Positions 4,676 through 64,000 are shown, counted from the stretch's first letter. The stretch: 64,000 nt of DNA from an uncultured Gammaproteobacteria bacterium (GCA_964540055.1 CAZILC010000001.1:40045-104044); one strand, 5' to 3'. A program made the numbers and translations. The notes: generated by a model from the letters alone, not told the origin.

Positions 4676-5584
4676 ATGAAAAAGCTGTTAGCCTTTGGTC
4701 CGCTGTTTATTATTATTGCTGCTCTGTTATGGGCGTTTGATGGAGTACTGAGAATCAGTCTCTATTCCCTACCGCCTGCAGTTATTGTTTTCTACGAGCA
4801 TGTTTTGGGTTTTTTCGTGCTTCTCTTCTTCGTTTCAAAATGGTTTGGAGAATTGAAAAAAATGAAACGCAAGGAATGGATTGCGATCATTGCAGTTTCA
4901 TTGTTCTCAGGAGCTCTGGGCACTATCTTTTATACATCAGCACTTCAACTCGTACAATATACCCAATATTCAGTAGTAGTACTTTTACAACAACAGCTTC
5001 AGCCAATCTGGGCAATTTTGGTTGCTGCAATTTTACTAAAAGAAAAATTAACAAAGCATTTCATACTCTGGGCGATAGTTGCTTTAGTAGGAGCCTATTT
5101 TATTACTTTTAAGGACCTTCATGTCAATTTGGCAACAGGTAGCGGCACTCTTGAGGCAGGATTATTGGCAATTGGAGCGGGATTTATGTGGGGAAGCACA
5201 ACTGCTATCAGTAAATTTACCCTCAACAAAGTTTCACATGTCGCTGCAACTGCTCTACGATTTTTCTTCGCACCAATTTTTGCATTCATTTTTGTCGTGA
5301 GTTTTAATCAAACTTCGGCTCTTTTTACCCTTAATCAACAACAATGGCTAACGCTCCTTCTTATTACTTTCACAACCGGCATGGTCGCAATACTTATTTA
5401 TTATTACGGCCTACGTAAAGTACAGGCGAAGGCAAGTGCTATATATGAACTAACATTCCCCGCTGCAGCAATTTTCATTGATTTCTTTTTGTATCATAAG
5501 ACACTTTCGTTCTCTCAAGTTATGGGTGTGGGTATTCTTATCCTTGCAATGGCTCAGGTGACTAAAAACTTTAAAAAGAGTTGA
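4676..5584 (+). CDS. EamA/DMT-family transporter
   Basis: 302 aa, about 10 TM helices, duplicated EamA-like halves. Confidence 0.8.
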   Translation: MKKLLAFGPLFIIIAALLWAFDGVLRISLYSLPPAVIVFYEHVLGFFVLLFFVSKWFGELKKMKRKEWIAIIAVSLFSGALGTIFYTSALQLVQYTQYSVVVLLQQQLQPIWAILVAAILLKEKLTKHFILWAIVALVGAYFITFKDLHVNLATGSGTLEAGLLAIGAGFMWGSTTAISKFTLNKVSHVAATALRFFFAPIFAFIFVVSFNQTSALFTLNQQQWLTLLLITFTTGMVAILIYYYGLRKVQAKASAIYELTFPAAAIFIDFFLYHKTLSFSQVMGVGILILAMAQVTKNFKKS

Positions 5585-38086: not shown

Positions 38087-38194
38087 AATTTTCAATTCTC
38101 AATTTTCATTGAATGATTCAATTAATTAATTTTCAAATTTGAAACATTGGTCATTGAAAATTGATTGAAAATTAGAAATTGTAAATTGAAAATT
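38087..38194. repeat. AT-rich array: three reverse and three forward copies of ATTGAAAATT around the palindrome TTTCAAATTTGAAA
   Basis: AATTTTCAAT at 38087..38096, AATTTTCAtT at 38101..38110, AATTTTCAAa at 38128..38137. Palindrome at 38131..38144. ATTGAAAATT at 38153..38162, 38164..38173 and 38185..38194. Confidence 0.7.
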
Positions 38195-38230
38195 GCTCTC
38201 ATATTTCCTAATTCATAATTTGATAAAAGC

Positions 38231-38239
38231 TGCTATAAT
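38231..38239 (+). promoter_or_regulatory. extended -10 promoter TGcTATAAT upstream of tkt
   Basis: TG at 38231..38232, TATAAT at 38234..38239. ATG 38253 lies 13 nt downstream. Confidence 0.5.
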
Positions 38240-38252
38240 GACTCTGTTTTAC

Positions 38253-40082: not shown

Positions 40083-40130
40083 TATAACTTCATATATCGT
40101 AAAAGCTTGACGTCTTCTTATTTTTAAGAG

Positions 40131-41018
40131 ATGATAAGTAGTAACTTACATTTTATGCTTGCAGATTTATACGAAGATAAATTAAAAGATCTTGAGGAAA
40201 AAGCTGAACATGCGCGCGAACTTGTCATCAACTCGCTTCTCGAAGCTGGATCGGGACACTCAGCTGGACCACTCGGGATGGCAGATGTCTTTACAGCGTT
40301 CTATTTTCATATTCTCAATCATGACCCCAAGAATCCTGATTGGGAAGACCGCGATAGACTTGTGCTTTCAAATGGCCACATCTGCCCGATCCGCTACGTT
40401 TCTATGGCTCAAGCTGGATACTTTCCTATTGAAGAATTAAAAACACTCAGAAAAATAAACTCACGCCTTCAAGGACATCCGCACAGAACTGCTTTACCGG
40501 GATTGGAAACAACATCTGGGCCGCTAGGTGAAGGCATCGGACAGGCAATCGGCATTGCACTCGCTGCGGATCTGGACAAAAAGAAATACTATACCTATGT
40601 CATAACTGGTGACGGTGAATTGGATGAAGGAAATATTTGGGAATCGGTGATGTTTGCCGGAAAAAATAAGATTAATAATCTCATTATGGTGATTGACCGA
40701 AACAATATTCAAATTGACGGCTTCACCGAAGATGTCATGCCGCTTGAACCACTCAAAGAAAAATTTGAAGCATTTGGCTGGCATGTGCTAGAATCCGATG
40801 CGCATAATATCAAACAATTCGTTGATAGAGTCAATGAAGCACATGCGATTTATGAAAAACCAACAGTAATCATCGCACACTCAATCCCGGGCAAAGGCGT
40901 TGATTTTATGGAAAAAGACTTCCACTGGCACGGAAAACCCCCAAATGCAGATGAAGCGAAAAAAGCGCTTGAAGAAATAAGAACGCTTGGCGGAAAAATT
41001 GAAAGTGAACATAAATAA
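40131..41018 (+). CDS. transketolase, N-terminal subunit (split type)
   Basis: 295 aa. EAGSGHSAGPLG, LSNGHICP, TGDGELDEGNIWES...DRN (ThDP motif), WHGKPP. The start could instead be ATG 40155. Confidence 0.85.
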   Translation: MISSNLHFMLADLYEDKLKDLEEKAEHARELVINSLLEAGSGHSAGPLGMADVFTAFYFHILNHDPKNPDWEDRDRLVLSNGHICPIRYVSMAQAGYFPIEELKTLRKINSRLQGHPHRTALPGLETTSGPLGEGIGQAIGIALAADLDKKKYYTYVITGDGELDEGNIWESVMFAGKNKINNLIMVIDRNNIQIDGFTEDVMPLEPLKEKFEAFGWHVLESDAHNIKQFVDRVNEAHAIYEKPTVIIAHSIPGKGVDFMEKDFHWHGKPPNADEAKKALEEIRTLGGKIESEHK

Positions 41019-41021
41019 ATT

Positions 41022-42011
41022 ATGTTAAATCCTAACCTAAAACTAAACGAAAAACTCTTTGATGAAGACGTCGAGGTTCAACCTACACGTGCTGGTTTTG
41101 GCAGTGGACTTTTGGCATTGGGAGAAATTAATCCAAATGTCGTCGCTCTCGCTGCGGATTTGACCGAATCAACACAGGCGCATAAATTTGCAGAGAAATT
41201 CCCAGAAAGATTTTTCCAGGTCGGCATTGGTGAACAAAATATGGCGGCAATTGCAGCAGGACTCGCAGAAAGTGGAAAAATCGCTTTTATTTCATCGTAT
41301 GCAACATTTTCACCGGGGAAAAATTGGGAGACACTTCGCACAACAGCAGTTTATAATGAGGCAAATGTTAAAATTGCAGGACACCATTCAGGGATCATGA
41401 CTGGACCTGACGGGGCAACCCATCAAGCAACTGAGGATATCGCAATCACCCGCTGCTGGCCCAAAATGCATGTCTATGTCCCCTGTGACGCGATTGAATC
41501 ACGAAAAGCGACAATTGCGTCAGTTGATATCAGCACTCCAGTGTATCTGCGTTATACGAGAGACAAAACGCCTGTCATGACAACCGAAAATACTCCATTC
41601 AAAGTCGGCAAAATGCAGACGTTTTGGGTAACCGAACATCCCAAAGCAACAATTTTCGCAACAGGTTATATGCTGTATTATGCGCTTGTTGCAGCAAAAG
41701 AACTTGAAGAAGAAAAAATTCCTGTGCTTGTTGTAAATGCGGCAACAATCAAACCGCTTGATGAAGAAGGAATTCTCGAATCAACTCGCGTATCTCAAGC
41801 TGCAGTAACGGTTGAAGACCATCAAGTTGAAGGTGGAATGGGCTCGGCAATTGCTGAACTACTTGCCAAAACCACTCCACTTCCGATAGAATTTATAGGG
41901 TTGCAAAATACTTTTGCCGAATCCGGAACTCCGAAAGAGTTAATCGAAAAATACGGAATGGATGTAAAAGCTATCAAGCAAGCCGTTAAAAGAGTAATTA
42001 GGAGAAAATAA
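41022..42011 (+). CDS. transketolase, C-terminal subunit (split type)
   Basis: 329 aa. PERFFQVGIGEQNM, GPDGATHQATEDIA motifs. 3-nt gap after the N-terminal subunit. Confidence 0.85.
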   Translation: MLNPNLKLNEKLFDEDVEVQPTRAGFGSGLLALGEINPNVVALAADLTESTQAHKFAEKFPERFFQVGIGEQNMAAIAAGLAESGKIAFISSYATFSPGKNWETLRTTAVYNEANVKIAGHHSGIMTGPDGATHQATEDIAITRCWPKMHVYVPCDAIESRKATIASVDISTPVYLRYTRDKTPVMTTENTPFKVGKMQTFWVTEHPKATIFATGYMLYYALVAAKELEEEKIPVLVVNAATIKPLDEEGILESTRVSQAAVTVEDHQVEGGMGSAIAELLAKTTPLPIEFIGLQNTFAESGTPKELIEKYGMDVKAIKQAVKRVIRRK

Positions 42012-49926: not shown

Positions 49927-50068
49927 GCATAAAGATTTTTTTCTGTTTCACTAGGGGGCGGACTGAGCTAAAGCGAGGGAGCCCGCCTGCGAGCGTAGCG
50001 AGACAGGGGTGGGAATCTCAAAATAAGGATCAATATCCCGCCTGAAACCAAGAAAAAAATTTTTATGC
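49927..50068 (+). ncRNA. candidate structured RNA or MITE-like element: GC-rich core between 19-20 nt inverted repeats
   Basis: GCATAAAGATTTTTTTCTG (49927..49945) pairs with CAAGAAAAAAATTTTTATGC (50049..50068); this gives an 18-bp helix containing one G-U that exists only on the plus strand. The core holds hairpins GGCGG/CCGCC and GGTGGGA/TCCCGCC, the latter also with a plus-strand G-U. Confidence 0.3.
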
Positions 50069-50124
50069 GTAGCTTTACGCTACACAACATCCAAACTCAG
50101 CTAAAAATTCATATTTCAAACTCA

Positions 50125-50138
50125 TGGTATGCTAAGAT
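50125..50138 (+). promoter_or_regulatory. PBP promoter: TGgTATGCT or TAAGAT -10 candidates, 7-12 nt upstream of ATG 50146
   Basis: catGGTATGCTAAGATagagtatATG. Confidence 0.45.
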
Positions 50139-50145
50139 AGAGTAT

Positions 50146-52419
50146 ATGCATCCCCGCTCAAGACTTCGGAGACGTTCCGTCACCGACTTTAAATTTAAAA
50201 ATAAGACTGCAAAAAAATCCAAACCAGGTATAAAAACTTCTATTAAAAACATCTTTAAAAATAAAAGGCGTAAATTGCTTTATGTTTTTCTCATTTTCCT
50301 CCTCATCATGCTTCTTATTCCACCTGCAACCTATTTATATTTCGCGAAAGATCTGAAAAGTAAAGACAGTGTCATGAATCGTCAGCAGACAGGACTCACA
50401 CTCATGGACAGAGACGGTCAAATTTTTTATACCTTTGATCTGGCAAAATCATTTACCTATATTCCAATTTCAGACATCCCCAAAACAGCACAGGACGGCG
50501 CAGTCGCAACCGAAGACAAAAATTTCTATACCAATCCTGGATTTTCCGTAACCGGTATTGCAAGAGCGTTTCTGACGGATATATTCGCTGGAAAAGTTAT
50601 AGAAGGAGGATCGACAATCACTCAGGAACTTGCGAAAAATGCTTTCCTGAGTCAATCCAGAAACGTCCTTCGGAAATATCAGGAGCTTGTACTTGCAGCA
50701 GAGCTCAATCGAAAATTCAGCAAGCAGGATATCCTGGAAATGTATCTTAATTCTGTTTATTTTGGTGAAGGAGCTTTCGGAATCCAAAACGCAGCCGAGG
50801 CATATTTTGGTAAACCCGCAAAAGATCTGGATTTAGCCGAATCGGCTCTTCTTATCGGTGTTCTTCCAGCTCCATCAGTCTATTCTCCTCTTTCCAATCC
50901 GCCGGACAAAGCTCTCCAGCGTCAGCACATTGTACTTTCGGAGATGGTTCAGGATGGATATATCACACAAAGCGACGCCGATGCTGCAGAAAATGAAACA
51001 TTGAAATACAATCCAAACAAATCAACACTCGATAATTTCATTGCGCCGCATTTCGCAATGTATGTCCGTGATCAATTATACAAACAGTATGGCGAGGAAC
51101 GCGTTATCCGAGACGGTTTCCGGGTCACTACAACGCTTGACCGAGATCTACAAACGTTTGCCGAAGGATCTGTTAAAACCCAGGTAACACGACTTACCTA
51201 CAATCACGCAAGTAACGGCGCTGCAGTTGCTTTGGATCCCAAAAACGGTCAGATCCTCGCCATGGTCGGCAGTTATAATTTTTATGATCCGAAATTTGGC
51301 CAAACCAATATGGGCCTCACTCCCCGCCAGCCGGGTTCATCATTCAAACCCATCATCTATGGCCGGGCTATTGATGACAGACTCATTACACCTGCGACAA
51401 TTCTTAAAGATGTGAAGACAACGTTTGATGGCGGATATACGCCGCACGATTACGATCAGCGTTATCGTGGTGATGTAACAGTGCGTCGGGCACTCGCGAA
51501 TTCTCTTAACATTCCAGCTGTTGAAGTTATGCAAATGGTCGGTACCGGGAACGGGCTTAATCAGGCACAGAAATTCGGCATCGATACACTTGATCCCAAT
51601 CACAATTACGGTTTATCTCTCGTCCTTGGCTCAGGCGAAGTGCCACTTCTTGAAATGACTGATGCTTATGCAGTTTTTGCCGCACAAGGTGTGTATCATA
51701 AAACAAATGACGTCATCTCAATTAAAGATAAATATGGCAATACTGTCCAAGCACCTTCTAATTTCTTTTCCTTCCTTGATGTATTAAATCCGATGAACTT
51801 AATTAATCCCTCCGCACAGAATGGCAGTCAAGTTATGAGTAAAGAAGCTGCATATCTTATCACATCGATACTATCAGATAACAATACGCGTGCGGAAGAA
51901 TTTGATGGTGCTCTTACTATCAATCGGCCTGCAGCTGTGAAGACAGGTACAACAGAAGACTTTCGCGATGCGCTGACAATTGGTTATACACCAAGTCTTG
52001 TTGTAGGTGTCTGGGTTGGTAATAATGACAATACGCCGATGGATAATATCGCAGGATCACTGGGTGCTGCTCCTATCTGGAGAAATATGATGGAAGACTA
52101 CTTGGTGGGTAAACCTGTTGAACAATTCCCCCGTCCGACGTTTATCGTAAGTCAAATAGTCTGCCCGGGCGCTGCAGCCGGGTATCTGCATACCTATACT
52201 GAATACTTCATCTCAGGAACACTAGCCAATTCCTGCGGCCAGCCCACAATCGCGCCAACGTTTACGCCAACTCCGACGAGCAAACTAACGCCAACTCCGA
52301 CAAATAAACCAAATCAACCAACCTCAACACCAGCACCAACGCCTACAACTGCGTTACAATCAACACCGACATCCTCTGCACCCACTATTTCCATCCCTAC
52401 TCCAACGATTCAGTTATAA
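50146..52419 (+). CDS. penicillin-binding protein 1A family (GT51 transglycosylase + transpeptidase), PT-rich C-terminus
   Basis: Start taken at ATG 50146 (MHPRSRLRRR, then a TM helix). EDKNFYTNPGF, GGSTITQELAKN, RKYQE (GT51). GSSFKP (SxxK), KTGTT. Confidence 0.85.
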   Translation: MHPRSRLRRRSVTDFKFKNKTAKKSKPGIKTSIKNIFKNKRRKLLYVFLIFLLIMLLIPPATYLYFAKDLKSKDSVMNRQQTGLTLMDRDGQIFYTFDLAKSFTYIPISDIPKTAQDGAVATEDKNFYTNPGFSVTGIARAFLTDIFAGKVIEGGSTITQELAKNAFLSQSRNVLRKYQELVLAAELNRKFSKQDILEMYLNSVYFGEGAFGIQNAAEAYFGKPAKDLDLAESALLIGVLPAPSVYSPLSNPPDKALQRQHIVLSEMVQDGYITQSDADAAENETLKYNPNKSTLDNFIAPHFAMYVRDQLYKQYGEERVIRDGFRVTTTLDRDLQTFAEGSVKTQVTRLTYNHASNGAAVALDPKNGQILAMVGSYNFYDPKFGQTNMGLTPRQPGSSFKPIIYGRAIDDRLITPATILKDVKTTFDGGYTPHDYDQRYRGDVTVRRALANSLNIPAVEVMQMVGTGNGLNQAQKFGIDTLDPNHNYGLSLVLGSGEVPLLEMTDAYAVFAAQGVYHKTNDVISIKDKYGNTVQAPSNFFSFLDVLNPMNLINPSAQNGSQVMSKEAAYLITSILSDNNTRAEEFDGALTINRPAAVKTGTTEDFRDALTIGYTPSLVVGVWVGNNDNTPMDNIAGSLGAAPIWRNMMEDYLVGKPVEQFPRPTFIVSQIVCPGAAAGYLHTYTEYFISGTLANSCGQPTIAPTFTPTPTSKLTPTPTNKPNQPTSTPAPTPTTALQSTPTSSAPTISIPTPTIQL

Positions 52420-54262: not shown

Positions 54263-55255
54263 TTACTTAAATTTCCTAAAGAGATTATAGATATGCTTTT
54301 TGCTTTGTTCAGTAACTTTAACGACGACAATGCCTACGTCAAACTGCCCGTAGAGCACAATACTTTGGAGTGGAGCAAAGAGTATCGCCGGAATCGCCAG
54401 TAAATCTTCTTCTCCTGAGACGACTATCAGTTGCTCTGCGTGCGTCGTTTCAAAATCTGAAATCGCTTCCTTTATAGTTTTCGCTGCATCATAGGAAATT
54501 GTTCCGGGAGCATTATGAGTAGCTCTTTTATATAAATTATCAAAAGAAACGGCGTGATCTTTGTCTAACAGATGCCTGCGTGTTCGTCCGTCGATGATAG
54601 TGATATCGGCTGTTCTTCCTGCCTGTGCAGCCGATAGCGACACAATATCACCGACTGTAATCAACATAGATTGCGAATCTAAGGACCCGAGGAGAGTTTG
54701 CATATCTGTTGCAATAGACCCGATGGGAGTCTGGAGTTCTGCGCGAAGAGAGTCAGGGAGTACAAACTCCAATTGACCCTCAAACACTTTCGCGTAGGAC
54801 TTCCCTTCCCGATTAGTTACACCTCGACGAATCCGCTCAGAAGAAATAATCTCATTATCATCACCTATTACAAATGGTACCGTAATAATCTCAAGTTTTT
54901 TGAAACTTTTTTTCTCACGCTCTTCATTTATTTTTTCTGCATTCAATTTGGTTTTTTCCGTAACAAAAATAGCATCAATATGTTCATCATCCAAACTATT
55001 GCCAAAAATATCGTGAATTGGGATAATCTTTGATCGTCTAGTCAAACCATGGGTAACCAGAAAAACTGAGACTGCATGTTCACGGGTTTTATAATCTTCA
55101 ATTAACTTCGCGAAATTTTTATCTTTAAACAATGCATCAGTCGCGATACCTATCGTGACATGTTCAGATTGTTCAAAGGCAGCAGTCAATAACGCTTGAT
55201 GTCCTACATGAAATCGATCAAAAGTTCCCCCGACAATTGCATTTTTAAACTTCAT
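54263..55255 (-). CDS. fusion of archaeal/eukaryotic-type phosphopantetheine adenylyltransferase (cytidylyltransferase fold) and DUF359 (GTP-dependent dephospho-CoA kinase-like)
   Basis: Start at ATG 55255 (MKFKNAIVGGTFDRFHVGHQALL, i.e. GxFxxxHxGH). The C-terminal half carries the DUF359 hallmarks ITVGDIVS, ITIIDGRTRR, VSGEEDLLAIPAILFAP...VLYGQFDVGIVVVKV. Confidence 0.7.
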   Translation of the reverse strand: MKFKNAIVGGTFDRFHVGHQALLTAAFEQSEHVTIGIATDALFKDKNFAKLIEDYKTREHAVSVFLVTHGLTRRSKIIPIHDIFGNSLDDEHIDAIFVTEKTKLNAEKINEEREKKSFKKLEIITVPFVIGDDNEIISSERIRRGVTNREGKSYAKVFEGQLEFVLPDSLRAELQTPIGSIATDMQTLLGSLDSQSMLITVGDIVSLSAAQAGRTADITIIDGRTRRHLLDKDHAVSFDNLYKRATHNAPGTISYDAAKTIKEAISDFETTHAEQLIVVSGEEDLLAIPAILFAPLQSIVLYGQFDVGIVVVKVTEQSKKHIYNLFRKFK

Positions 55256-55262
55256 AATCCAA

Positions 55263-55291
55263 AGTATACTGGGAAGGTTTGGAATCCGCAA
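55263..55291 (-). promoter_or_regulatory. promoter: TTGCGG-17-TATACT, with the ATG 7 nt downstream
   Basis: Minus-strand read: TTGCGG (55291..55286), TATACT (55268..55263), ttggatt, ATG (55255). Confidence 0.55.
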
Positions 55292-55322
55292 CTGGAATGA
55301 ATTCATTTTTCTATTGATTTGT

Positions 55323-55337: not shown

Positions 55338-55859
55338 ATGTTAAGCGAGGCTTCACAATATCAAAAAGATTTAGGTGTTACAAAAGCTATTGTAAAAAAA
55401 ATAGGTATCGAATCAAACCTTTCAAATAATACTATCTCACAAGCGGTTGAGGCAATAGACTTTCAAGCAGAGATATCTCCAGGTTCTACAAGGGTTTTTG
55501 AACTAGGTACGGCAAGAGTAAGATTTAGGCCTGCGGAATATGGTAGAGCGATAACTGTCTTTGATAGTATTGCCCGACCTAACGGAGTAGAGCTAAAAAA
55601 TCACTATAGAGTAGTAAAAGAACTTGAAGATAGACTACCTCGACGAGAAAGCAAATTAGAGGTAAGGCGCGAGCAAACCTTAGATAAACAGGCTTCTGAC
55701 GAAATTACTTTTCGTCCGCAATTTCTGATTCCTGCTATAGTTTGTGGCTATTATGCCTGGCAAGCAATAAAAGAAAAAGATTACGCCTCGGCTTATTTTT
55801 GGGGATCGACAGCTATTGCGAATTTAGTTGGAGTATTTGTACCAATCGAAGATGATTAA
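55338..55859 (+). CDS. hypothetical protein (ORFan E), C-terminal membrane hairpin
   Basis: Start moved from TTG 55314 to ATG 55338 on promoter geometry. 173 aa. Two C-terminal hydrophobic helices (FLIPAIVCGYYAWQAI, WGSTAIANLVGVFVPI). Confidence 0.5.
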   Translation: MLSEASQYQKDLGVTKAIVKKIGIESNLSNNTISQAVEAIDFQAEISPGSTRVFELGTARVRFRPAEYGRAITVFDSIARPNGVELKNHYRVVKELEDRLPRRESKLEVRREQTLDKQASDEITFRPQFLIPAIVCGYYAWQAIKEKDYASAYFWGSTAIANLVGVFVPIEDD

Positions 55860-55866
55860 TAAAGAA

Positions 55867-56265
55867 CTAATAAAAAATTTTGGAAAGATAATAGAATAAA
55901 ACTCCCGCAAATCCCCAAAAAGGTACAGTCAAAAAACTTGTATTTCCATTAAGAGAAAATCTATGATAGGTCCATAATTTTTGACCCACAATTGCTTCAT
56001 ACGCAAATCCTATGCTCCATTCTCCTATTGGCCCTAAAATGGCAAAAAGAAGAAAAATCCGTAAAGCATCAAGTCCGACAAAATAAGTACTCATAACTAC
56101 TCCCACTAAGGGAAACAATATGAGATACACGTATCTGATAAAAGCAAAATGCCGACGAACTGAAGGCTTTTTATGCTTGAAATACATGCGGGCAAATATT
56201 CCTTCAAAAAAGATCCCGGTGAGGATTAGTAATAAGAGAAAAACTGCTTCCTGTTCAAGGCGCAT
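55867..56265 (-). CDS. small integral membrane protein (4 TM), unassigned
   Basis: 132 aa. Weak resemblance to the DUF1113 / putative ABC-transporter type IV family. Confidence 0.5.
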   Translation of the reverse strand: MRLEQEAVFLLLLILTGIFFEGIFARMYFKHKKPSVRRHFAFIRYVYLILFPLVGVVMSTYFVGLDALRIFLLFAILGPIGEWSIGFAYEAIVGQKLWTYHRFSLNGNTSFLTVPFWGFAGVLFYYLSKIFY

Positions 56266-56271
56266 ATAAAA

Positions 56272-56300
56272 AGTATAAAATGCATAAGCAAAAGAAGCAA
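56272..56300 (-). promoter_or_regulatory. promoter: TTGCTT-17-TATACT, with the ATG 6 nt downstream
   Basis: Minus-strand read: TTGCTT (56300..56295), TATACT (56277..56272), ttttat, ATG (56265). Confidence 0.55.
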
Positions 56301-56394
56301 CAGTGAGGCTGTTGTATAATGACTCTCATCGCCAAACCTGAAAGTAATTATCTTACGACCACAAGAATCATTATAATCACAATTTATTCTGTAG

Positions 56395-56400
56395 TATAAT
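56395..56400 (+). promoter_or_regulatory. -10 box TATAAT, 6 nt upstream of ATG 56407
   Basis: ctgtagTATAATtaccttATG. Confidence 0.45.
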
Positions 56401-56406
56401 TACCTT

Positions 56407-56733
56407 ATGGCGTTACCGGAACATGGCGGGGTAAGTGGTGATGTGCGACATCTTATCGATTCTGCATTTACGACCCAAGCTCCTAGAGTAATAAAATATA
56501 CTGATGAGACAGTCGCTGGTGCTCATCAAAGAAGAGTTCATGATCGAAGAGTTGCAGGTGTAGAAACTGTTGTTTATCCACCTCCTCAACAAATCTATCG
56601 CCTACGAGATCATCTACAAGAGTTAGGAGTGTCTTTAGTAGATTTTGCAACAGTCGCTACACTTTATACTATTAGTGGTTTTGCAAACAGACTGCGTACA
56701 CAAAATCCCAAAAATAACCATCAAAAAAAATAA
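56407..56733 (+). CDS. hypothetical protein (ORFan F)
   Basis: 108 aa. C-terminal hydrophobic segment LVDFATVATLYTISGF. Its stop codon abuts the uppS stop with no gap. Confidence 0.45.
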   Translation: MALPEHGGVSGDVRHLIDSAFTTQAPRVIKYTDETVAGAHQRRVHDRRVAGVETVVYPPPQQIYRLRDHLQELGVSLVDFATVATLYTISGFANRLRTQNPKNNHQKK

Positions 56734-57423
56734 TTACTTCCCAAACCTTCTTTCCCTATTTTCAAACTCCTCAATCGCCTTATCAAATCCGTTCACCCCA
56801 AAATCCGGCCAATAGGTGTCAGTGAAATATAATTCGCTGTAGACACTTTGCCAAGGAAGATAGCCACTCAATCGTACTGATCCACCCGTGCGGATTATCA
56901 AGTCAGGATCCGGCTGACCTGCTGTGTATAAATATTTTTCAAACTCAACTTCAGAAATTTCAGATTCCTTTACAGTATTTGAAACAATTTGCTTAACCGC
57001 ATGCAAAATTTCTTCCCTTCCTCCATAATTCAAAGCAATATTTATCTGAATTCCTGTATTATTTTTTGATTTTTCAATGGCTTCACCTATCATTTTTTGA
57101 ATATCCTCAGGAAAAGCCCTAATATTTCCCAACACACAAATTTTGCCTCCCTTTTTGAGCAATTTATCAAACAATTTTCCTTTGAAAATTTTACGGAATA
57201 AATTTAATAAATAACTAACTTCATCCTCGTTTCTTTTCCAATTTTCAGTTGAAAATGCCCAGAAAGTAATATATCGGATACCCAAATCTTGTGCGCGTGT
57301 CACAATTTTTTCAATTTGCTGATATCCCTTTTGATGTCCTGCAAAAGCCGGAAGATTTCTCTTTCTCGCCCAACGGCGATTCCCATCCATAATTAGTGCG
57401 ACATGCTGTAACATACATTTCAA
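56734..57423 (-). CDS. uppS: undecaprenyl-diphosphate synthase (cis-prenyltransferase)
   Basis: HVALIMDGNRRWA, FSTENWKR, ...RTGG..RLSG/N motifs. Confidence 0.9.
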   Translation of the reverse strand: MKCMLQHVALIMDGNRRWARKRNLPAFAGHQKGYQQIEKIVTRAQDLGIRYITFWAFSTENWKRNEDEVSYLLNLFRKIFKGKLFDKLLKKGGKICVLGNIRAFPEDIQKMIGEAIEKSKNNTGIQINIALNYGGREEILHAVKQIVSNTVKESEISEVEFEKYLYTAGQPDPDLIIRTGGSVRLSGYLPWQSVYSELYFTDTYWPDFGVNGFDKAIEEFENRERRFGK

Positions 57424-57426
57424 ATA

Positions 57427-57948
57427 TCAAAATGTTAAAACTTTTTTTAATTCCTCAACCTGCCATTTACACCAGAGCGAATATCTATCCGGATCATCCT
57501 TCAAACGAGTGAGAAACTCTTCCCATTCAACCCACTCATATACTTCAACTTCTTTCGAATTTGGCTTTGGATCTTTTGAAACTACAGCTGTGTAAACAGG
57601 ACAAATCTCATTCTCAACAATGCCATTCATTTCAGCTCGATATCGGTACTTTGGTAAAACCACTTTAATTTTCTCAGGAGTCAAACCAAGTTCGAATTGC
57701 AAACGTCTTTTTATCGCATCCTCTGTTGTCTCCCCCGGACCAGGATGACCACAGCAGGTGTTGGTCCAAACACCCGGGAAAACTTTTTTACTCAAAGCAC
57801 GCTGCGTGAGTAGAAACTTCCCTTCTTTATTAAAAACGTAAACTGAAAACGCCCGGTGCAATGGCGTGCGAGCATTATGCGCTTCCGTTTTCTCCATCGT
57901 ACCGATCTGTTCATTGTTATGATTAACTAAGACTACTAATTCCTGCAT
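57427..57948 (-). CDS. idi: isopentenyl-diphosphate delta-isomerase, type 1
   Basis: 173 aa Nudix fold. LHRAFSVYVFN, WTNTCCGHPGPGE (catalytic Cys) and ENEICPVY (catalytic Glu region). Confidence 0.85.
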   Translation of the reverse strand: MQELVVLVNHNNEQIGTMEKTEAHNARTPLHRAFSVYVFNKEGKFLLTQRALSKKVFPGVWTNTCCGHPGPGETTEDAIKRRLQFELGLTPEKIKVVLPKYRYRAEMNGIVENEICPVYTAVVSKDPKPNSKEVEVYEWVEWEEFLTRLKDDPDRYSLWCKWQVEELKKVLTF

Positions 57949-57949
57949 A

Positions 57950-58927
57950 TTAAAATAGATGTTTTCCCACCAATCGTGTTCCTCTACACGGATAATTCAT
58001 TATAATTTGTTTTACTTCTTTGATCTCTGATACATTTTTCATCACCTTTGGAAAATCATTCTTTTTACATAAAAGATGAATATCTTGACCCGTATTCATT
58101 GTAAAGTAAACCTGCAAACCTTCACTTCGCCATTTTTTAACAGCAAGCATTACACGAACTGTTCCTGGCAGCCAGTAAATAAGTGACGGTATTGATGTGA
58201 GCATAATTGCATGTAACTCCAACGCTTCCGCCTCTACAAGTTCTCCAAATGCCGGAAAATCTTTTTGCTTCATGAATTTTTTTGCCAACGTAATCTTTTG
58301 CTGTATGTGCGAGCGCCTCACCTGAAAAAAAGGACTTGATGAAGCTTTCTTCATACCCTCACTTGTTGCGATATCTTTGGGGCCGACATTTGTTACCGCA
58401 ATGACATCAACAATATCCCAATACTCAGGTTCGTATAAAGAAACTGCGTACGAGGATTCACTTGTATCGCCATCGAGCCATTCGACAAATCCATTGGGAA
58501 TTGACCGACAAGCAGAACCTGATCCCTGTCTAGCCAGGATGCTCAATGCTTTTTCAGAAAGCTTTAAACCTGCAGCTGCTGCTCCTGCTACAGTAAGAGC
58601 AGCAAAACCGGACGCAGAAGAAGAAAGACCCGTTCCAGTCGGGAAATTATTTTCTGTTACGATTTTTACTTTTTTTTTAATTTTTGCAATTTTTCTAATC
58701 CTGTCAATATGTTTGATCGCCCGGTTATTTTCAAAAGCTTCTTTTTTACCGTTTAACAGTATCGAATCGTCTTGTAACGATTCGTCAAATGCAACCGTTG
58801 TCGTGGTAAGCAGGTTGCTTAAATTCATTGAGATGCTGCCGTTCTCGGGAAGCCTCAAAACTTCATCCTTTTTACCCCAATATTTAATAAACGCAATATT
58901 TGATGGCGCTATTGCTGTTGCTTTCAT
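57950..58927 (-). CDS. mvaD: diphosphomevalonate decarboxylase
   Basis: APSNIAFIKYWGKKD, NGSISMNL, FPTGTGLSSSASGFAAL motifs. Confidence 0.85.
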   Translation of the reverse strand: MKATAIAPSNIAFIKYWGKKDEVLRLPENGSISMNLSNLLTTTTVAFDESLQDDSILLNGKKEAFENNRAIKHIDRIRKIAKIKKKVKIVTENNFPTGTGLSSSASGFAALTVAGAAAAGLKLSEKALSILARQGSGSACRSIPNGFVEWLDGDTSESSYAVSLYEPEYWDIVDVIAVTNVGPKDIATSEGMKKASSSPFFQVRRSHIQQKITLAKKFMKQKDFPAFGELVEAEALELHAIMLTSIPSLIYWLPGTVRVMLAVKKWRSEGLQVYFTMNTGQDIHLLCKKNDFPKVMKNVSEIKEVKQIIMNYPCRGTRLVGKHLF

Positions 58928-59418
58928 AATACTCCTACTAACTTTAAAGCTTCTCGGGCAAACATACTTAATGGCACTCCATTTTTTATAATCTCACGTT
59001 TTTTCATAAAAATTGCCTCATCAATTTCTTCTTTGTTAATTGTAAAAGCACCGTTATAAGTTGCTTTGAAAATACAATCATATTCTGTTTCTTTAGGAAA
59101 ACGAATCATCAATTTTTTAACAAATGTTAACTCGGTAGTAATACCTATTTCTTCTAGCATTTCTCGTTGAGCCGCCTGGATATATGACTCACCTTTTCCT
59201 ACATGACCTGAAACGGCAATATCATATTTTCCGGGATCGGTATCCTTATTCTTACTTCTTTTTTGTAAAAGAATCTCTCCTTTGTCATTAAAGATAACAA
59301 TTCCTATTGCTCTATGAATAAGTGTTTTATTGTGATGACAATCATACCTCGTCCGATACCCCAAAATAGTATCGTCCTCATCAACGACTACAAATAATTC
59401 ACTCTGTTCATCTTTCAT
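58924..59418 (-). CDS. Nudix hydrolase, IDI-paralogous but lacking the IDI catalytic Cys
   Basis: Complete Nudix box GHVGKGESYIQAAQREMLEEIGI. The segment YDIAVSGHV aligns with WTNTCCGHP of the neighbouring IDI. 4-nt overlaps on both sides. Confidence 0.75.
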   Translation of the reverse strand: MKDEQSELFVVVDEDDTILGYRTRYDCHHNKTLIHRAIGIVIFNDKGEILLQKRSKNKDTDPGKYDIAVSGHVGKGESYIQAAQREMLEEIGITTELTFVKKLMIRFPKETEYDCIFKATYNGAFTINKEEIDEAIFMKKREIIKNGVPLSMFAREALKLVGVL

Positions 59419-60389
59419 TTCTCAATTCTGACTCCTTCTGCATTTGTTTTTACGTGAATGATTTCTCCTCCTGCAACGACAATTGCTTTTTCAATTGCTT
59501 TTCTTTTATCATTCGGAGAAATCGCAATCATACAATCTCCTCCTCCAGCTCCGGACAATTTAGCACCGTATGCACCGGCATTTCGGGCCGCATGATTCAT
59601 CACCGCAAGTTTGTCTGTTTCGACACCATAAGAAGCAAGAAGGCCTTCGTTGATATTCATCATTTCTCCAAATTTTTCAAAATCTTTATTTTGCAATGCC
59701 TTTTTCCCGATCTCAACACAATCTGTGCTGACATCAAAAAGAACAGGATAAATTTGGGGATATTGCTGCAATTTCGCACCAACCATTTTAACCAAAGTAG
59801 AAGTATCTCCTTTACTTCCACTGTAGCCAACAATCAACGGGAAATTTGCAACGGAAATTGGCTTGATTACTTTGCCGCCTCCAACAAAATATAAAATGCC
59901 GCCGTAAATACCTGCTGCGATGTCAAATCCTGAACCAACTCCCTGAATATCAATAACCGTTTGATACGCAAGCTTGAATAATGACTTGTTATCCAACTTC
60001 GTGCCGGTTAATTCGGCAAGGGCTTTCATCGTACAGACAGTTGAGGCAGATGAGGAACCAAATCCGACACTTGATGAGAAAGCCGATTTTGTCTCAATCC
60101 GCAAGCCACCCATTAGTTTATATTTTTTCAGGAAATTCTTAACCGCAATTTCAACGAACTTTGCTCCTTTTGGTATATCTCCCTGACCGAGGTCTTTCAA
60201 ATCTTTTTTGTAGCCAGTTATCTTTACATCAGGAGCTTCTATTTGTAGCTCTGGAGTATCTATAATCTCTATTTGCAACTTCATCCGCTGATCAACAGCA
60301 GTTACCAAACAAGGCCTGTTATGCACGACCGCATGATCTCCCAATAACATCAACTTCCCCGGTGCTGACACAATAACATTTTTCATCAA
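59415..60389 (-). CDS. mvaK2: GHMP kinase, probable phosphomevalonate kinase
   Basis: APGKLMLLGDHAVV, GFGSSSAS, GSGFDIAAGIYGG, GAKLSGAGGGDC. Second GHMP kinase in the operon. Confidence 0.65.
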   Translation of the reverse strand: MMKNVIVSAPGKLMLLGDHAVVHNRPCLVTAVDQRMKLQIEIIDTPELQIEAPDVKITGYKKDLKDLGQGDIPKGAKFVEIAVKNFLKKYKLMGGLRIETKSAFSSSVGFGSSSASTVCTMKALAELTGTKLDNKSLFKLAYQTVIDIQGVGSGFDIAAGIYGGILYFVGGGKVIKPISVANFPLIVGYSGSKGDTSTLVKMVGAKLQQYPQIYPVLFDVSTDCVEIGKKALQNKDFEKFGEMMNINEGLLASYGVETDKLAVMNHAARNAGAYGAKLSGAGGGDCMIAISPNDKRKAIEKAIVVAGGEIIHVKTNAEGVRIEK

Positions 60390-61363
60390 TCGACTCTTAC
60401 TCCCTCACAACCAAGCTCGATGCTATCATATTCATGATCCTTCAGATAGCCAATAAGCATTCCTGTCCCTTTTGTTTTTCCTCCACCGCCACTCATCTTT
60501 GCAGCGCCCCCTGCTTTTTCAATGGCTCTTATGATCTTCTTGACTGAAGACGAAACAACACCCAAGTTTTCCAAATTTTTCTCACCTTTTTTGATGATTT
60601 CCAAAACAGCATCAGTATTATGCTGCAATGCGAATAATAAATCTTTCGCCAACGCTTCCTGCTCATCAAAAATTTTTTTCGCCTTTCTAGGATTTTGATC
60701 AATAAATTTTTTTACTAACCCAACCATTTCTCCTGTCGTTTCCTCCGGTTTTCCGGTATCAAGAAGAAAAAAGTTTTGCTTCACTTCTTCTGAAAGATCC
60801 AACGGGATCTGCTGAATAATTTTCAAATCATCCGTTTCTTTTCTAAACCATACAAACCCGCCAAAAACAGACGCGCTATTATCTCCACCGGAAGATGTCC
60901 CATGAACTAATTGTTCCGCAAGAAAGGCAATTTTGTTGATCTTTTCTTTATCAAAATTTTCTTTAAGAAAAAGAGTTATTGCTCCGACGATTGCGACTGC
61001 TATTGCCGCAGATGAACCAAGTCCCCACCCTTCAGGTATTTGATTGTTAATAACTAGTGAAAAACCTGATGAAAAATGTTTTTTATAAGAACGCAATGCT
61101 TGCTGCAAAATCAAAATCACATAATCAAGCTGTAGAGAAATTTTTGTATCTTTTGCAAGAATTTCTTCTTCAGTGATTGTTATAAAATCAGGAGTATTAT
61201 TGGCTATCAACACAATTTTTTTGTCATCCCGTTTTGTCAGTTCAACAAAACATCGTTTATCGACAGCTGCAAGGAGTGCTGGTTTACCGTATACGACCGA
61301 ATGCTCACCCATCAAATGGATCTTGCCTGGAGCAGAAACAATGATACTACTCTGCATCTTCAT
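60386..61363 (-). CDS. mvk: mevalonate kinase
   Basis: APGKIHLMGEHSVVYGKPALLAAV and GLGSSAAIAVA motifs. Confidence 0.8.
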   Translation of the reverse strand: MKMQSSIIVSAPGKIHLMGEHSVVYGKPALLAAVDKRCFVELTKRDDKKIVLIANNTPDFITITEEEILAKDTKISLQLDYVILILQQALRSYKKHFSSGFSLVINNQIPEGWGLGSSAAIAVAIVGAITLFLKENFDKEKINKIAFLAEQLVHGTSSGGDNSASVFGGFVWFRKETDDLKIIQQIPLDLSEEVKQNFFLLDTGKPEETTGEMVGLVKKFIDQNPRKAKKIFDEQEALAKDLLFALQHNTDAVLEIIKKGEKNLENLGVVSSSVKKIIRAIEKAGGAAKMSGGGGKTKGTGMLIGYLKDHEYDSIELGCEGVRVD

Positions 61364-61656
61364 AGTGGTTTTACTTTTAATCCATAAGAGATAACATCTT
61401 CGCTACCGGCTGTACCGATCCGCCGGACAACTGTCACTACCTTTTGCCCGACTTTTAACTGGTCTTCAGTAAAATCGACAACTTGTAATGTTTGCCTTTT
61501 TTCTCCAAATGATACTATCGCAACCACATATGGTACCTGCTGGGAAAAGCCTTCCGGCGCGACGAATATTTTTGTCCATACGACAATGTTGCCTGTTTTT
61601 CCAAGCTCTTTGTGTAATCCTTTTATTGTTCTCCACGATGCTATCGTATTGTTCAT
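61360..61656 (-). CDS. DUF35 OB-fold protein (thiolase/HMGCS scaffold type), no zinc ribbon
   Basis: 98 aa. GNIVVWTKIFVAPEGFSQQVPYVVAIVSFGEKRQTLQVVD...VGQKVVTVVRR...ISYGLKVKP matches the DUF35 OB-fold part. No CxxC pairs. Confidence 0.7.
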   Translation of the reverse strand: MNNTIASWRTIKGLHKELGKTGNIVVWTKIFVAPEGFSQQVPYVVAIVSFGEKRQTLQVVDFTEDQLKVGQKVVTVVRRIGTAGSEDVISYGLKVKPL

Positions 61657-61664
61657 AGTATTAA

Positions 61665-62810
61665 TTAAACTTGTAAAATATGCACAACAGCGGTTGCTCC
61701 AGTGCCACCAACATTTTGCGTTAAACCTACTTTTACACCATCTACTTGTTTTTTCCCACCCCGGCCGATAAGTTGCTCATAAACTTCAACAAGTTGTTTG
61801 ACTCCCGTCGCACCTACAGGGTGGCCACAAGCTTTTAGTCCTCCCGAAGTATTTACAGGTTTTTTGCCGCCAAGTTTGGTCGCACCGCTTGCGACAAATG
61901 CACCTCCTTCTCCTTTTGCACAAAATCCTAAATCCTCCATAGCCAATATTTCAGCTATCGTAAAACAATCATGCACTTCCATAATATCGACATCTTTATG
62001 AGTAATTCCCGCTTGTTTAAAAGCTTTCATTCCAGCATCTTTGGTCGCGGCTAGCTCCGTCAAACTAACTCTTCCGGACAATGAAAGTGAATCTGTTACG
62101 ACACTGCTTGCAGAAATAAAAACATCTTTGCGGTCTTTCTGTTTTGTTGGTTGTGCCCGTAAAACTAGCGCAGCAGCTCCATCAGTAATCGGCGAAGAAT
62201 CGAGAAGCGTAAAAGGATCAGTTACTTTTGAACTGTTAAGAACTTTTTCAATTGAGATTTCAAAGGGAAATTGTGCTTTTGCATTGAGGCTTGCATGATA
62301 ATGATTTTTTACCGCAACCTGTGCCATATGTTCGCGTGTTGTTCCAAATGCTTGCATATGTGTTTTTGCCAACAATGCATAGAGTGCCGGGAATGTTAAA
62401 CCTGCAAGTCTTTCTTCTTCGGATCCGGCTCCCATTAAAAGCGCACTAATTTTCTCTGGTGCAAAATCTGTCATTTTCTCAGCACCTACTACAAGAACCG
62501 TTTTATATGTTCCAGCCAGAAGAGATTGAACAGCAAGATGCACAGCAAGTCCGCCAGATGCACAAGCGCCTTCGACTTTGAATCCTCCCGATCGAATTCC
62601 TAAGGAGGATGCAACAGCAGCACCGATATGCTCCTGGTTTTGTAAACTTCCCGAAAGCATATTACCAACAAAAACAGCTTCAATTTCTTTCACATTACTT
62701 TGCGCATCTCTAATCGCTTCCAAAGAAGCTTCCGTTGCCAGATCAAGAAGGGTTTTATCCCAATGTTCTCCAAATTTCGTAACTGCCGCTCCGGCGATGT
62801 ATGCTTTCAT
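61665..62810 (-). CDS. acetyl-CoA acetyltransferase (archaeal/SCP-x-type thiolase)
   Basis: 381 aa. EGACASGG (nucleophile Cys), a C-terminal ...GGLKACGHPVGATG (His), and NVGGTGAT in place of the usual Cys-containing thiolase block. Confidence 0.85.
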   Translation of the reverse strand: MKAYIAGAAVTKFGEHWDKTLLDLATEASLEAIRDAQSNVKEIEAVFVGNMLSGSLQNQEHIGAAVASSLGIRSGGFKVEGACASGGLAVHLAVQSLLAGTYKTVLVVGAEKMTDFAPEKISALLMGAGSEEERLAGLTFPALYALLAKTHMQAFGTTREHMAQVAVKNHYHASLNAKAQFPFEISIEKVLNSSKVTDPFTLLDSSPITDGAAALVLRAQPTKQKDRKDVFISASSVVTDSLSLSGRVSLTELAATKDAGMKAFKQAGITHKDVDIMEVHDCFTIAEILAMEDLGFCAKGEGGAFVASGATKLGGKKPVNTSGGLKACGHPVGATGVKQLVEVYEQLIGRGGKKQVDGVKVGLTQNVGGTGATAVVHILQV

Positions 62811-63841
62811 ATATTTTTGGTTTTTTTCAAATAATCGAGATAATCAATGGTGATCTTATTCTCGATAAACTGTTTGACAGTAGCATCTGATGCTTTCCTT
62901 TCAATGTGTTTGGTCGTCTCGAAAATAAATCCATCAGATCCAGCTCCAGATCCGTAGGAAACAAAAAAGATTTTTTGGTGAGGTTTGGCAATATCTAGCA
63001 CACCTGCCAGCCCTACAAGTGCTGATGCGGTATAGGGATTCCCGATTGATTCTACGATCAAAGACGGCTTGATCTGCGCATCGGTGAATCCTAATTTCTT
63101 TGCAGCATTACGCGGGAATTTACCATTTGGCATATGAAAAACACAATAATCAAAATCTGAAGGCTGCATGCCACTCTCTTGCAATAACTTTTTTCCTTCA
63201 CTTAACACATGATTGAAATACGCCGGCTCCCCGGTGAAACGTCCTGCATGTGAAGGATATCGCGCTCCGTCACGCCGCCAGAAATCCGGAGTATCGGATG
63301 TATACGAAGACATAGAAAGAATCTGCGCAATTACGTCGGCTTTATCATCACCCACAACATATGCTGCTGCTGCACTACCCGCAGTAAATTCCAATACATC
63401 TCGAGGTTTGGCCTGTGCGGTATCGGCTCCAATGACCAACCCATACTTAATTTTCTTGCTGTCAACCAATCCTGCCGTAATTTCCATTCCAGTTGTAGCA
63501 GCTTTGCAAGCAAATTCCAAATCCGCTGCAAAATAATCATTGCCTACCCCAAGAATTTCTGCAATTGTCGATGAAGACGGATTAACTGCATAAGGATGAC
63601 TTTCTGATCCGACAAATAAGCTTTGTATAGCATGGGCGTCTAATTTTGCGCGCTTAAGAGCTATTAAACTTGCCTCAACTCCTATGGTAATAGCATCTTC
63701 ATCAATAGCAGGAACTGCTTTCCCCTTAATTTGCAAAGCCCCGATAATTTCCATAGGCTGTTTATCCCATGCCAAAGCAATATCTTCAAGTGAAATTCTG
63801 TATCGGGGTATATACACCCCATATGATAAAATGCCAGCCAT
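62807..63841 (-). CDS. mvaS: hydroxymethylglutaryl-CoA synthase (short archaeal-type, 344 aa)
   Basis: GILSYGVYIPRYRI, FACKAAT (active-site Cys region), CVFHMPNGKF, SYGSGAGSD. Confidence 0.85.
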   Translation of the reverse strand: MAGILSYGVYIPRYRISLEDIALAWDKQPMEIIGALQIKGKAVPAIDEDAITIGVEASLIALKRAKLDAHAIQSLFVGSESHPYAVNPSSSTIAEILGVGNDYFAADLEFACKAATTGMEITAGLVDSKKIKYGLVIGADTAQAKPRDVLEFTAGSAAAAYVVGDDKADVIAQILSMSSYTSDTPDFWRRDGARYPSHAGRFTGEPAYFNHVLSEGKKLLQESGMQPSDFDYCVFHMPNGKFPRNAAKKLGFTDAQIKPSLIVESIGNPYTASALVGLAGVLDIAKPHQKIFFVSYGSGAGSDGFIFETTKHIERKASDATVKQFIENKITIDYLDYLKKTKNI

Positions 63842-63843
63842 AA

Positions 63844-64000
63844 TTACCTTCCCAACTGCTTATGAGCTTTTCCCAAACTTCCTTCTGCCAAACTCGCTAA
63901 TAGTGAAATTTCTCCGGCTAGAACTCCGGCTGCAATAATTTCAGCAAACTTTTCGACTTTTCCATCACCAGACACACCAAGAAGCTTTAGTGCCTCCTGT
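63844..64000 (-). CDS. HMG-CoA reductase, C-terminal fragment (N-terminus beyond window)
   Basis: The minus-strand translation ends ...QEALKLLGVSGDGKVEKFAEIIAAGVLAGEISLLASLAEGSLGKAHKQLGR*. The stop lies 2 nt before the HMGCS ATG. Confidence 0.65.
   Translation of the reverse strand, partial: QEALKLLGVSGDGKVEKFAEIIAAGVLAGEISLLASLAEGSLGKAHKQLGR

Follow-up and report, generated by a model that had tools for sequence, protein, structure and literature searches.

A probably lineage-typical mevalonate operon with a zinc-less DUF35 protein in a genome assigned to the Microgenomates

The 3-hydroxy-3-methylglutaryl coenzyme A (HMG-CoA) synthase (HMGCS), the acetoacetyl-CoA thiolase (AACT) and the DUF35 protein of Methanothermococcus thermolithotrophicus are encoded by three adjacent genes, were solved as a complex (Protein Data Bank (PDB) entries 6ESQ and 6ET9) and are the closest solved relatives of three proteins that are likewise encoded side by side within a ten-gene mevalonate operon, which is the subject of this report. 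The operon lies at the end of a 64,000-nt stretch of DNA (GCA_964540055.1, CAZILC010000001.1:40045-104044; the window hereafter), which is recorded as that of an uncultured Gammaproteobacteria bacterium. For bacteria of the candidate phyla radiation (CPR), Hoshino & Gaucher 2018 (PMC6107057) described a Microgenomates cluster with archaeal AACT and HMG-CoA synthase (HMGS), a lower half of the classical type and synteny with a cis-prenyltransferase; in the trees published therein the AACT and HMGS of CPR form a clade congruent with the CPR phylogeny, and homologs of isopentenyl phosphate kinase (IPK) were found to be common in CPR and were called 'enigmatic'. A further related system is the pathway of the Chloroflexi (Anaerolinea, Roseiflexus), which shares the archaeal-type HMGCS, thiolase and DUF35. 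Finally, PhlABC and MucABC are repurposed complexes of the Friedel-Crafts type, and these have lost both the catalytic tetrad of HMGS and the HDxF motif of the thiolase (PMC12960953).

The operon comprises ten co-directional and tightly packed genes on the minus strand, reaching from position 56734 to the window end, whose families were assigned with Pfam and NCBIfam models (Table 1). Their placement, their tight spacing and their identities had been claimed in a first-pass annotation of the window and were all confirmed by the positions of the open reading frames (ORFs) and by the family matches. Adjoining genes either overlap by 4 nt or are separated by gaps of 1-8 nt, the gap between the isopentenyl diphosphate isomerase (IDI) gene and the gene for undecaprenyl-diphosphate synthase (UppS) being 3 nt, or 12 nt when counted from the ATG that the gene caller assigned to UppS. 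The HMG-CoA reductase (HMGR) gene was completed from an identical 12.8-kb Logan contig (L001, 387-1523), where it encodes a 378-aa protein of the class I NADPH type (PF00368; TIGR00533 443 bits, cut-off 442) and opens the operon, with a divergent sigma-70 gene upstream. A terminator scan returned no terminator-like site within the operon on the operon strand; promoter and terminator scans covering 55800-64000 and the HMGR upstream region returned fewer sites, the sigma-70-like ones included, than shuffled sequence, so they are uninformative. The operon has a GC content of 0.38-0.43 and in this respect matches the rest of the window.

The lineage of the host was approached via HMGCS, which was searched in a collection holding one genome per prokaryotic species; 221 relatives were obtained, and the window proteins were mapped onto 80 loci. 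Named best relatives (55-66% identity) belong to Levybacteria, Gottesmanbacteria, Woesebacteria and Shapirobacteria and to metagenome-assembled genomes labelled 'Patescibacteria/Microgenomates group', the single best relative reaches 77% identity under a title that looks mislabelled, and HMGCS of archaea and Anaerolineae is 46-52% identical to that of the window. The best named DUF35 relatives are CPR proteins as well, including ones of the 'Patescibacteria group', and RIFCSP Levy- and Gottesmanbacteria, i.e., genomes of the type analysed by Hoshino & Gaucher, are found among the related loci. The window contains neither rRNA nor tRNA genes. Judged indirectly, from the relationships of its proteins, the genome is that of a Microgenomates (Levybacteria-like) CPR bacterium. 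Many metagenome-assembled genomes (those of L002, L003 and L007 among them) carry the Microgenomates operon under the titles 'uncultured Gammaproteobacteria' or 'Candidatus Acidiferrales', and such record titles probably represent a placeholder or a wrong taxonomy.

Across the 80 loci a short DUF35 gene directly follows the thiolase gene in 51, with a median length of 100 aa and a median gap of 4 nt. Forty of these 51 loci reach as far as the decarboxylase gene, and in every one of the 40 the order HMGR-HMGCS-thiolase-DUF35-kinase A-(kinase B)-decarboxylase is kept; both kinases are present in 38, and UppS follows downstream on the same strand in 22. One further locus, located on a 597-kb contig (L088), shows exactly the ten-gene order of the window, with PBP1A and BacA/UppP nearby. 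The ten genes thus very likely constitute the mevalonate operon typical of this Microgenomates (Levybacteria-like) CPR lineage, because the same operon is found in 51 loci and does not deviate from the window in GC content. Compared with the cluster of Hoshino & Gaucher, the lineage, the clustering and the cis-prenyltransferase synteny are the same, and archaeal AACT, HMGS, HMGR-I, mevalonate kinase (MVK), a second kinase, the decarboxylase and IDI-I are all present in the window; IPK, which that paper often finds in synteny, is absent here, whereas the window possesses DUF35 and Nudix genes, two words with zero occurrences in the paper's text.

For the first enzymes of the pathway, the best PDB matches of HMGCS, thiolase and DUF35 were identified to be the corresponding chains of 6ESQ/6ET9 (364, 283 and 39 bits). 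HMGCS matches 6esq_I far ahead of PhlA (182 bits) and bacterial MvaS (75 bits) and reaches only 124 bits with the bacterial MvaS-type model TIGR01835 (cut-off 360), and the thiolase matches 6esq_A, with thiolase II following at about 53 bits. The HMGCS catalytic tetrad (Glu80, Cys112, His236, Asn268) is intact, as are the thiolase nucleophile Cys83 and its HDxF motif (H280-D-C-F). Gene adjacency is close, with a 4-nt overlap between the HMGCS and thiolase genes and an 8-nt gap between those for thiolase and DUF35. Together with the fold of the modelled DUF35, these matches bear out the archaeal character that the first-pass annotation had attributed to the trio. Intact catalytic residues and a DUF35 built of an N-terminal WR helix and an OB fold are thus common to the window trio and to the Methanothermococcus complex, whereas the host of the window trio is bacterial, its DUF35 is devoid of the rubredoxin-like zinc ribbon (about 32 residues with all four cysteines), and a complex of its three proteins is putative.

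The short DUF35 protein passes the PF01796 cut-off, which substantiates the family assignment made earlier for the 98-aa ORF, and its sole significant PDB sequence match is 6esq_E. It consists of a helix carrying the conserved WR motif and of an OB fold; there is no zinc ribbon and no cysteine. Alignment with homologs of CPR, archaea, Gemmatimonadota and Chloroflexi from the related loci revealed a clean deletion of about 32 residues, which removes the CxxC..CxxC rubredoxin-like ribbon directly after the N-terminal WR motif; the OB fold is retained, as is the C-terminal YG.K motif. In an AlphaFold2 model based on 27 homologs (mean pLDDT 81), a single N-terminal helix is combined with a barrel of five strands, and a Foldseek search of the PDB with this model placed 6esq_G/E/F first (E=1.7e-6, 34% identity), ahead of PhlB, the DUF35-type subunit of benzoylsuccinyl-CoA thiolase (7PXP), ChsH2-DUF35 and MucC. 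That the protein lacks its zinc-ribbon half had been proposed at first pass and holds true, as there is no cysteine, the ribbon block is deleted in the alignment, and upstream of the ORF there is no room for it. A mis-called start codon was considered and rejected, given the short distance to the thiolase stop codon here and in the 51 loci; ORFs that were called longer are few and run into the thiolase gene.

The same architecture is widespread. A profile of the short DUF35 was searched against 1.84 billion representatives and retrieved 222 proteins at E<=1e-10, 115 of the best 150 being 90-115 aa long; the CxxC..CxxC motif occurs in none of these 115 short representatives from among the best 150 of 222. 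By these sequences, the family of the short zinc-less DUF35 comprises at least 115 clusters, as delimited at 50% identity. DUF35 proteins of archaeal, Gemmatimonadota and most Chloroflexi loci have 123-152 aa and contain the four-Cys ribbon; an Anaerolinea locus (L079) encodes a 104-aa ORF without cysteine. A few homologs (such as P0196 and P0212) combine a CPR-like N-terminus (SP.KIWR) with a zinc ribbon; they may be intermediates and could then serve to date the ribbon deletion. In the searchable literature no link between DUF35 and CPR was found, and one homolog in Joint Genome Institute (JGI) data was automatically annotated as 'scaffold protein (connect acetoacetyl-CoA thiolase and HMG-CoA synthase)'. 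By analogy to the archaeal complex, the short DUF35 most likely bridges thiolase and HMGCS.

The lower half of the pathway was described at first pass as classical. The two GHMP kinases encoded by the window fall into two cleanly separated orthologous groups (A and B), both of which form clades of their own. Two loci, L046 (9616-12337) and L047 (12745-15349), encode a group-A kinase, a decarboxylase and an IPK without group B, the IPK of L046 scoring 197 bits with NF040647 (cut-off 120) and that of L047 being recognised by PF00696 (AA_kinase) only; the Microgenomates lineage therefore seems to include both mevalonate routes. Since every route needs MVK, since phosphomevalonate kinase (PMK) is dispensable when phosphomevalonate decarboxylase (PMD) and IPK are present, and since only group A is kept in L046 and L047, we infer, with some reserve, that kinase A is the MVK and kinase B an MVK-derived PMK. 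For the decarboxylase, residues Lys19 and Met192 are of particular interest: the PMD structures 6N0X (wild type) and 6N0Z differ in sequence only by exchanges of Asn to Lys and His to Met, the conversion of PMD specificity to that of diphosphomevalonate decarboxylase (DMD) by mutagenesis has been reported (PMC9254496), and in both residues the window enzyme agrees with the 6N0Z variant and with the mevalonate diphosphate decarboxylases (MDDs) of Enterococcus and Staphylococcus. Measured against the residue lists of Dellas et al. (PMC3857490), the enzyme possesses the Tyr, Lys and Ser-Gly-Ser of MDDs but a PMD-like Arg25 and Thr. Judged from its sequence, the decarboxylase is probably specific for the diphosphate. 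As a separator of two-kinase operons from IPK operons, the 6N0X/6N0Z residue pair was tried and fails, the same residues being found in both types.

Between kinase B and the decarboxylase, the operon encodes a Nudix protein (Nudix2) whose gene shares 4 nt with each of its two neighbours. Its scores stay below the family cut-offs of IDI (NF002995, 84 vs 127), YfcD (78 vs 152) and NF041653 'Nud_hyd_Meth' (69 vs 300), and its best PDB match is E. coli YfcD (2FKB). A canonical Nudix box, GHVGKGESYIQAAQREMLEEIGI, is located at residues 71-93; at the position of the catalytic Cys of IDI-1 a Ser is found (VSGHV, not CGHP), and the residues that align with the His and Glu-x-Glu metal ligands of IDI are kept. 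With no catalytic Cys, scores below cut-off and a canonical Nudix box, a second IDI-1 was ruled out, and by its motifs Nudix2 is assigned to the IDI-like Nudix branch as a hydrolase and not an isomerase. JGI pipelines label its homologs 'IDI type 1', a label which, on Nudix proteins, would miscount IDI in pathway surveys. More than 100 clusters of homologs of about 164 aa were retrieved, the named ones belonging to Roizmanbacteria, Daviesbacteria and the 'Patescibacteria group'.

The position of Nudix2 between kinase and decarboxylase is kept in L083 (Roizmanbacteria), L085 (Daviesbacteria) and L088 (Levybacteria-like), and the slot is devoid of a Nudix gene in L002, the closest relative of the window. 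In the Levybacteria-like locus L017 (15076-15927) the slot between kinase B and decarboxylase holds a 283-aa Cof-type HAD hydrolase, as assigned by Pfam and NCBIfam, and the likewise Levybacteria-like loci L018, L029 and L030 hold a homologous HAD there, judged from N-termini near-identical to that of L017; this may represent a non-orthologous replacement of the Nudix protein by another phosphohydrolase. In L089 (4797-7519), IPK (NF040647 176 bits, cut-off 120), a 238-aa protein without assigned family, IDI-1 (215 bits, cut-off 127) and a homolog of Nudix2 form a separate cluster, whose neighbourhood contains no further mevalonate gene. Plants pair IDI-like Nudix hydrolases with IPK, and a cycle between isopentenyl phosphate (IP) and isopentenyl diphosphate (IPP) has been proposed there. 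An IDI-like Nudix enzyme of Methanosarcina mazei, on which Ishibashi et al. worked in 2022, is reportedly specific for IPP and dimethylallyl diphosphate (DMAPP). Nudix2 shares the IDI-like Nudix fold family with YfcD, for which it lies far below the equivalog cut-off, and the IDI-like family with the M. mazei enzyme (NF041653), whose model it likewise matches far below cut-off. By analogy with these enzymes it is tentatively suggested, as the likeliest activity, that Nudix2 might hydrolyse IPP/DMAPP (or mevalonate 5-diphosphate, MVAPP), a possibility to which we give somewhat less than half of our credence.

Taken together, a pathway can be proposed in which the SCP2-type thiolase would form acetoacetyl-CoA, which the archaeal-type HMGCS would convert to HMG-CoA, whereby the short DUF35 would hold both enzymes together and so pull the unfavourable thiolase step forward. 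Class-I HMGR would then yield mevalonate, which would be phosphorylated twice, by kinase A (as MVK) and subsequently by kinase B, which would be a paralog of MVK with the role of PMK. The decarboxylase would deliver IPP, which IDI-1 would isomerise to DMAPP, and UppS would finally produce undecaprenyl diphosphate for peptidoglycan, using an allylic primer from a trans-prenyltransferase encoded elsewhere. Nudix2, translationally coupled to the decarboxylase, may convert IPP/DMAPP to the monophosphate and thus act as an overflow or regulatory valve. No gene of the methylerythritol phosphate (MEP) pathway is found within the 64-kb window, and it is plausible that the supply of the cell-wall lipid carrier depends on this operon. 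More far-reaching, and rather doubtful as a whole, is the idea that in Microgenomates the ribbon-less DUF35 still bridges thiolase and HMGCS, and that a Nudix or HAD enzyme turns IPP/DMAPP (or MVAPP) into the monophosphate, which together with IPK would constitute an IP/IPP cycle.

Two alternatives concern the trio. The first supposes that a bacterial mevalonate operon recently acquired an archaeal cassette of HMGCS, thiolase and DUF35 by horizontal transfer, which would account for an archaeal-type trio next to bacterial UppS, PBP1A and MscL, all three of which are present in the window as the first-pass annotation had stated (PF01255 for UppS; the MscL-like protein being assigned from its motif). 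Such an event is nevertheless very improbable, as the same trio with the ribbon-less DUF35 occupies the same position in the 51 Microgenomates loci, which span several candidate phyla, as HMGCS is 55-77% identical to CPR homologs and only about 50% to archaeal ones, as the GC content of operon and window agrees, and as CPR AACT and HMGS follow the CPR phylogeny in the published trees (PMC6107057). Hence, of the 'chimeric' operon proposed at first pass, the combination of archaeal-type upper enzymes with bacterial surroundings stands; the notion of an unusual one-off does not, given that the arrangement is standard in Microgenomates (51 loci, the identical gene order in L088, matching GC). It is vertically inherited and no recent chimera. 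The other alternative assumes that the trio is an acyltransferase of the PhlABC/MucABC Friedel-Crafts kind which does not form HMG-CoA, and it can draw on PhlA and PhlC as second-tier PDB matches and on PhlB and MucC as fold matches of the DUF35 model. This reading was rejected because the catalytic residues are retained in HMGCS and thiolase, i.e., the Glu/Cys/His/Asn tetrad and HDxF, both of which are absent from the Phl/Muc complexes (PMC12960953); in addition 6ESQ scores about twice as high as the Phl proteins and the trio genes lie between HMGR and the mevalonate kinases, which renders its probability virtually nil.

Several observations weigh against the pathway as drawn above. We know of no enzyme of the mevalonate pathway from CPR that has been characterised by experiment, and the substrate proposed for Nudix2 is drawn from homology and gene context. 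No trans-prenyltransferase is encoded within the 64-kb window, hence the synthase of the UppS primer must lie elsewhere. All DUF35 proteins characterised structurally bind zinc (PMC6996347). Both kinases pass the mevalonate-kinase model TIGR00549 and neither passes a PMK model, the scores of the second GHMP kinase being 101 vs 166 for TIGR01220 and 77 vs 500 for NF040957, and it is kinase B, not A, which is closer to the characterised archaeal MVKs in the PDB (132 vs 74 bits). For the decarboxylase the best PDB match is the Anaerolinea thermophila PMD (6N0Z 297, 6N0X 292 bits), the nearest true MDD, from Enterococcus, following at 214 bits, and across Microgenomates the Lys and Met positions vary whatever the kinase content, position 1 being mostly K/R and position 2 M, Q or H.

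Part of these observations would fit the route of haloarchaea and Chloroflexi, in which the decarboxylase would be a PMD that forms isopentenyl phosphate, the IPK would be encoded elsewhere and one of the kinases would have another role. Besides the closeness to the Anaerolinea PMD, it is favoured by Arg25 and by Thr/Ser at the positions that, according to Dellas et al., are Arg and Thr in PMDs (PMC3857490), by L046 and L047 with their single kinase, decarboxylase and IPK, and by the frequency of IPK homologs in CPR (PMC6107057). Two translationally coupled kinases speak against it, as do the lack of an AA_kinase/IPK among the window ORFs of at least 150 aa, the agreement of Lys19 and Met192 with MDDs and the 6N0Z variant, and the model scores of the decarboxylase, which passes TIGR01240 and reaches only 187 bits with the PMD model NF040704 (cut-off 475). 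The Chloroflexi themselves possess one kinase plus IPK and a mostly ribbon-bearing DUF35, whereas the window encodes two kinases and a decarboxylase with the Lys/Met pair of MDDs, and its 64 kb contain no IPK. The PMD route is therefore decidedly unlikely for the window, and the classical route via two kinases and MDD is likely the better supported one, because two kinases are present and no IPK is found in the 64 kb. As to the 'classical' lower pathway of the first-pass annotation, the reading of the second kinase as PMK agrees with ours, but its status as a fact does not stand, given that both kinases are MVK-like and that the decarboxylase is nearest to PMD.

Further features of the window and of related loci were recorded alongside the operon (Table 1). 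Downstream of UppS, the operon strand has a terminator-like hairpin, and a convergent 108-aa ORF without family match, also called on the Logan contig, ends with its last base directly before the UppS stop codon. On the operon strand and 1.4 kb downstream of the operon, a single ORF encodes both an archaeal-type phosphopantetheine adenylyltransferase and a DUF359/GTP-dependent dephospho-CoA kinase domain, which represent the two final steps of CoA synthesis in its archaeal form; in L002 (16953-17987) an ORF whose N-terminus is closely similar by eye directly follows UppS. The Roizmanbacteria locus L083 (1993-3048 and 10970-12013) carries IspG/GcpE of the MEP pathway (TIGR00612 296 bits, cut-off 280) between DUF35 and the mevalonate kinases and a trans-prenyltransferase after UppS. 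Transketolase is encoded twice in a row within the window, as a fused form followed by a pair of N- and C-terminal halves; the fused 629-aa ORF was considered as DXS and rejected (NF004559 872 bits vs dxs 185, cut-off 466). A flavin mononucleotide (FMN) riboswitch immediately precedes a gene for an EamA-family transporter, which presumably is a riboflavin importer, and the MscL-like channel protein, assigned from its motif by eye, carries a C-terminal CxxC..CxxC tail.

Table 1. Genes of the mevalonate operon, followed by other features of the window (positions in the 64,000-nt window; scores in bits)
Feature	Position	Strand	Details
UppS (undecaprenyl-diphosphate synthase, cis-prenyltransferase)	56734-57423	-	229 aa (226 aa from ATG); PF01255 274; TIGR00055 253, cut-off 110
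Type-1 IDI	57427-57948	-	173 aa; TCCGHP motif; NF002995 237, cut-off 127; TIGR02150 156, cut-off 106
Probable mevalonate 5-diphosphate decarboxylase	57950-58927	-	325 aa; TIGR01240 266, cut-off 171
IDI-like Nudix hydrolase (Nudix2)	58924-59418	-	164 aa; PF00293
GHMP kinase B, probably acting as PMK	59415-60389	-	324 aa (TTG) or 323 aa (ATG one codon downstream, gene-caller choice); TIGR00549 186, cut-off 163
GHMP kinase A, probably MVK	60386-61363	-	325 aa; TIGR00549 180, cut-off 163
Short DUF35, scaffold-like	61360-61656	-	98 aa, no Cys; PF01796 36.8, cut-off 27.1
SCP2-type (archaeal AACT) acetoacetyl-CoA thiolase	61665-62810	-	381 aa; NF004720 464, cut-off 420
Archaeal-type HMGCS	62807-63841	-	344 aa; TIGR00748 430, cut-off 353; NF003274 479
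Class-I (NADPH) HMGR, C-terminus	63844-64000	-	51 codons + stop; truncated by window end
ORF without family match	56407-56733	+	108 aa
Terminator-like hairpin (operon strand)	56314-56298	-	
Fused phosphopantetheine adenylyltransferase and DUF359/GTP-dependent dephospho-CoA kinase domain	54263-55306	-	NF001985 138, cut-off 104; NF041125 99, below cut-off
PBP1A	50065-52419		
Transketolase, fused form then split N-half + C-half pair	38193-42011	+	fused 629-aa form at 38193-40082
EamA-family transporter	4676-5584		presumably riboflavin importer
FMN riboswitch	4555-4674	+	RF00050 90, gathering score 66
MscL-like channel protein	3379-3786	-	135 aa

The headline of this operon, namely archaeal upper enzymes feeding a lower pathway of bacterial type and UppS, is already published for CPR, and the window is a further example and no new principle. 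Undescribed are details of modest novelty, i.e., a clade-wide zinc-less DUF35, an operon-borne Nudix protein with a HAD alternative and a decarboxylase that stands between PMD and MDD. With its large natural family of zinc-less members, DUF35 offers a ready test of whether the ribbon is needed for the assembly of thiolase and HMGCS. The slot shared by Nudix and HAD, together with the IPK-IDI-Nudix cluster, provides a testable hypothesis for the IPK homologs of CPR, and an IP/IPP cycle, if true, would explain why IPK occurs in CPR beside a complete classical pathway.

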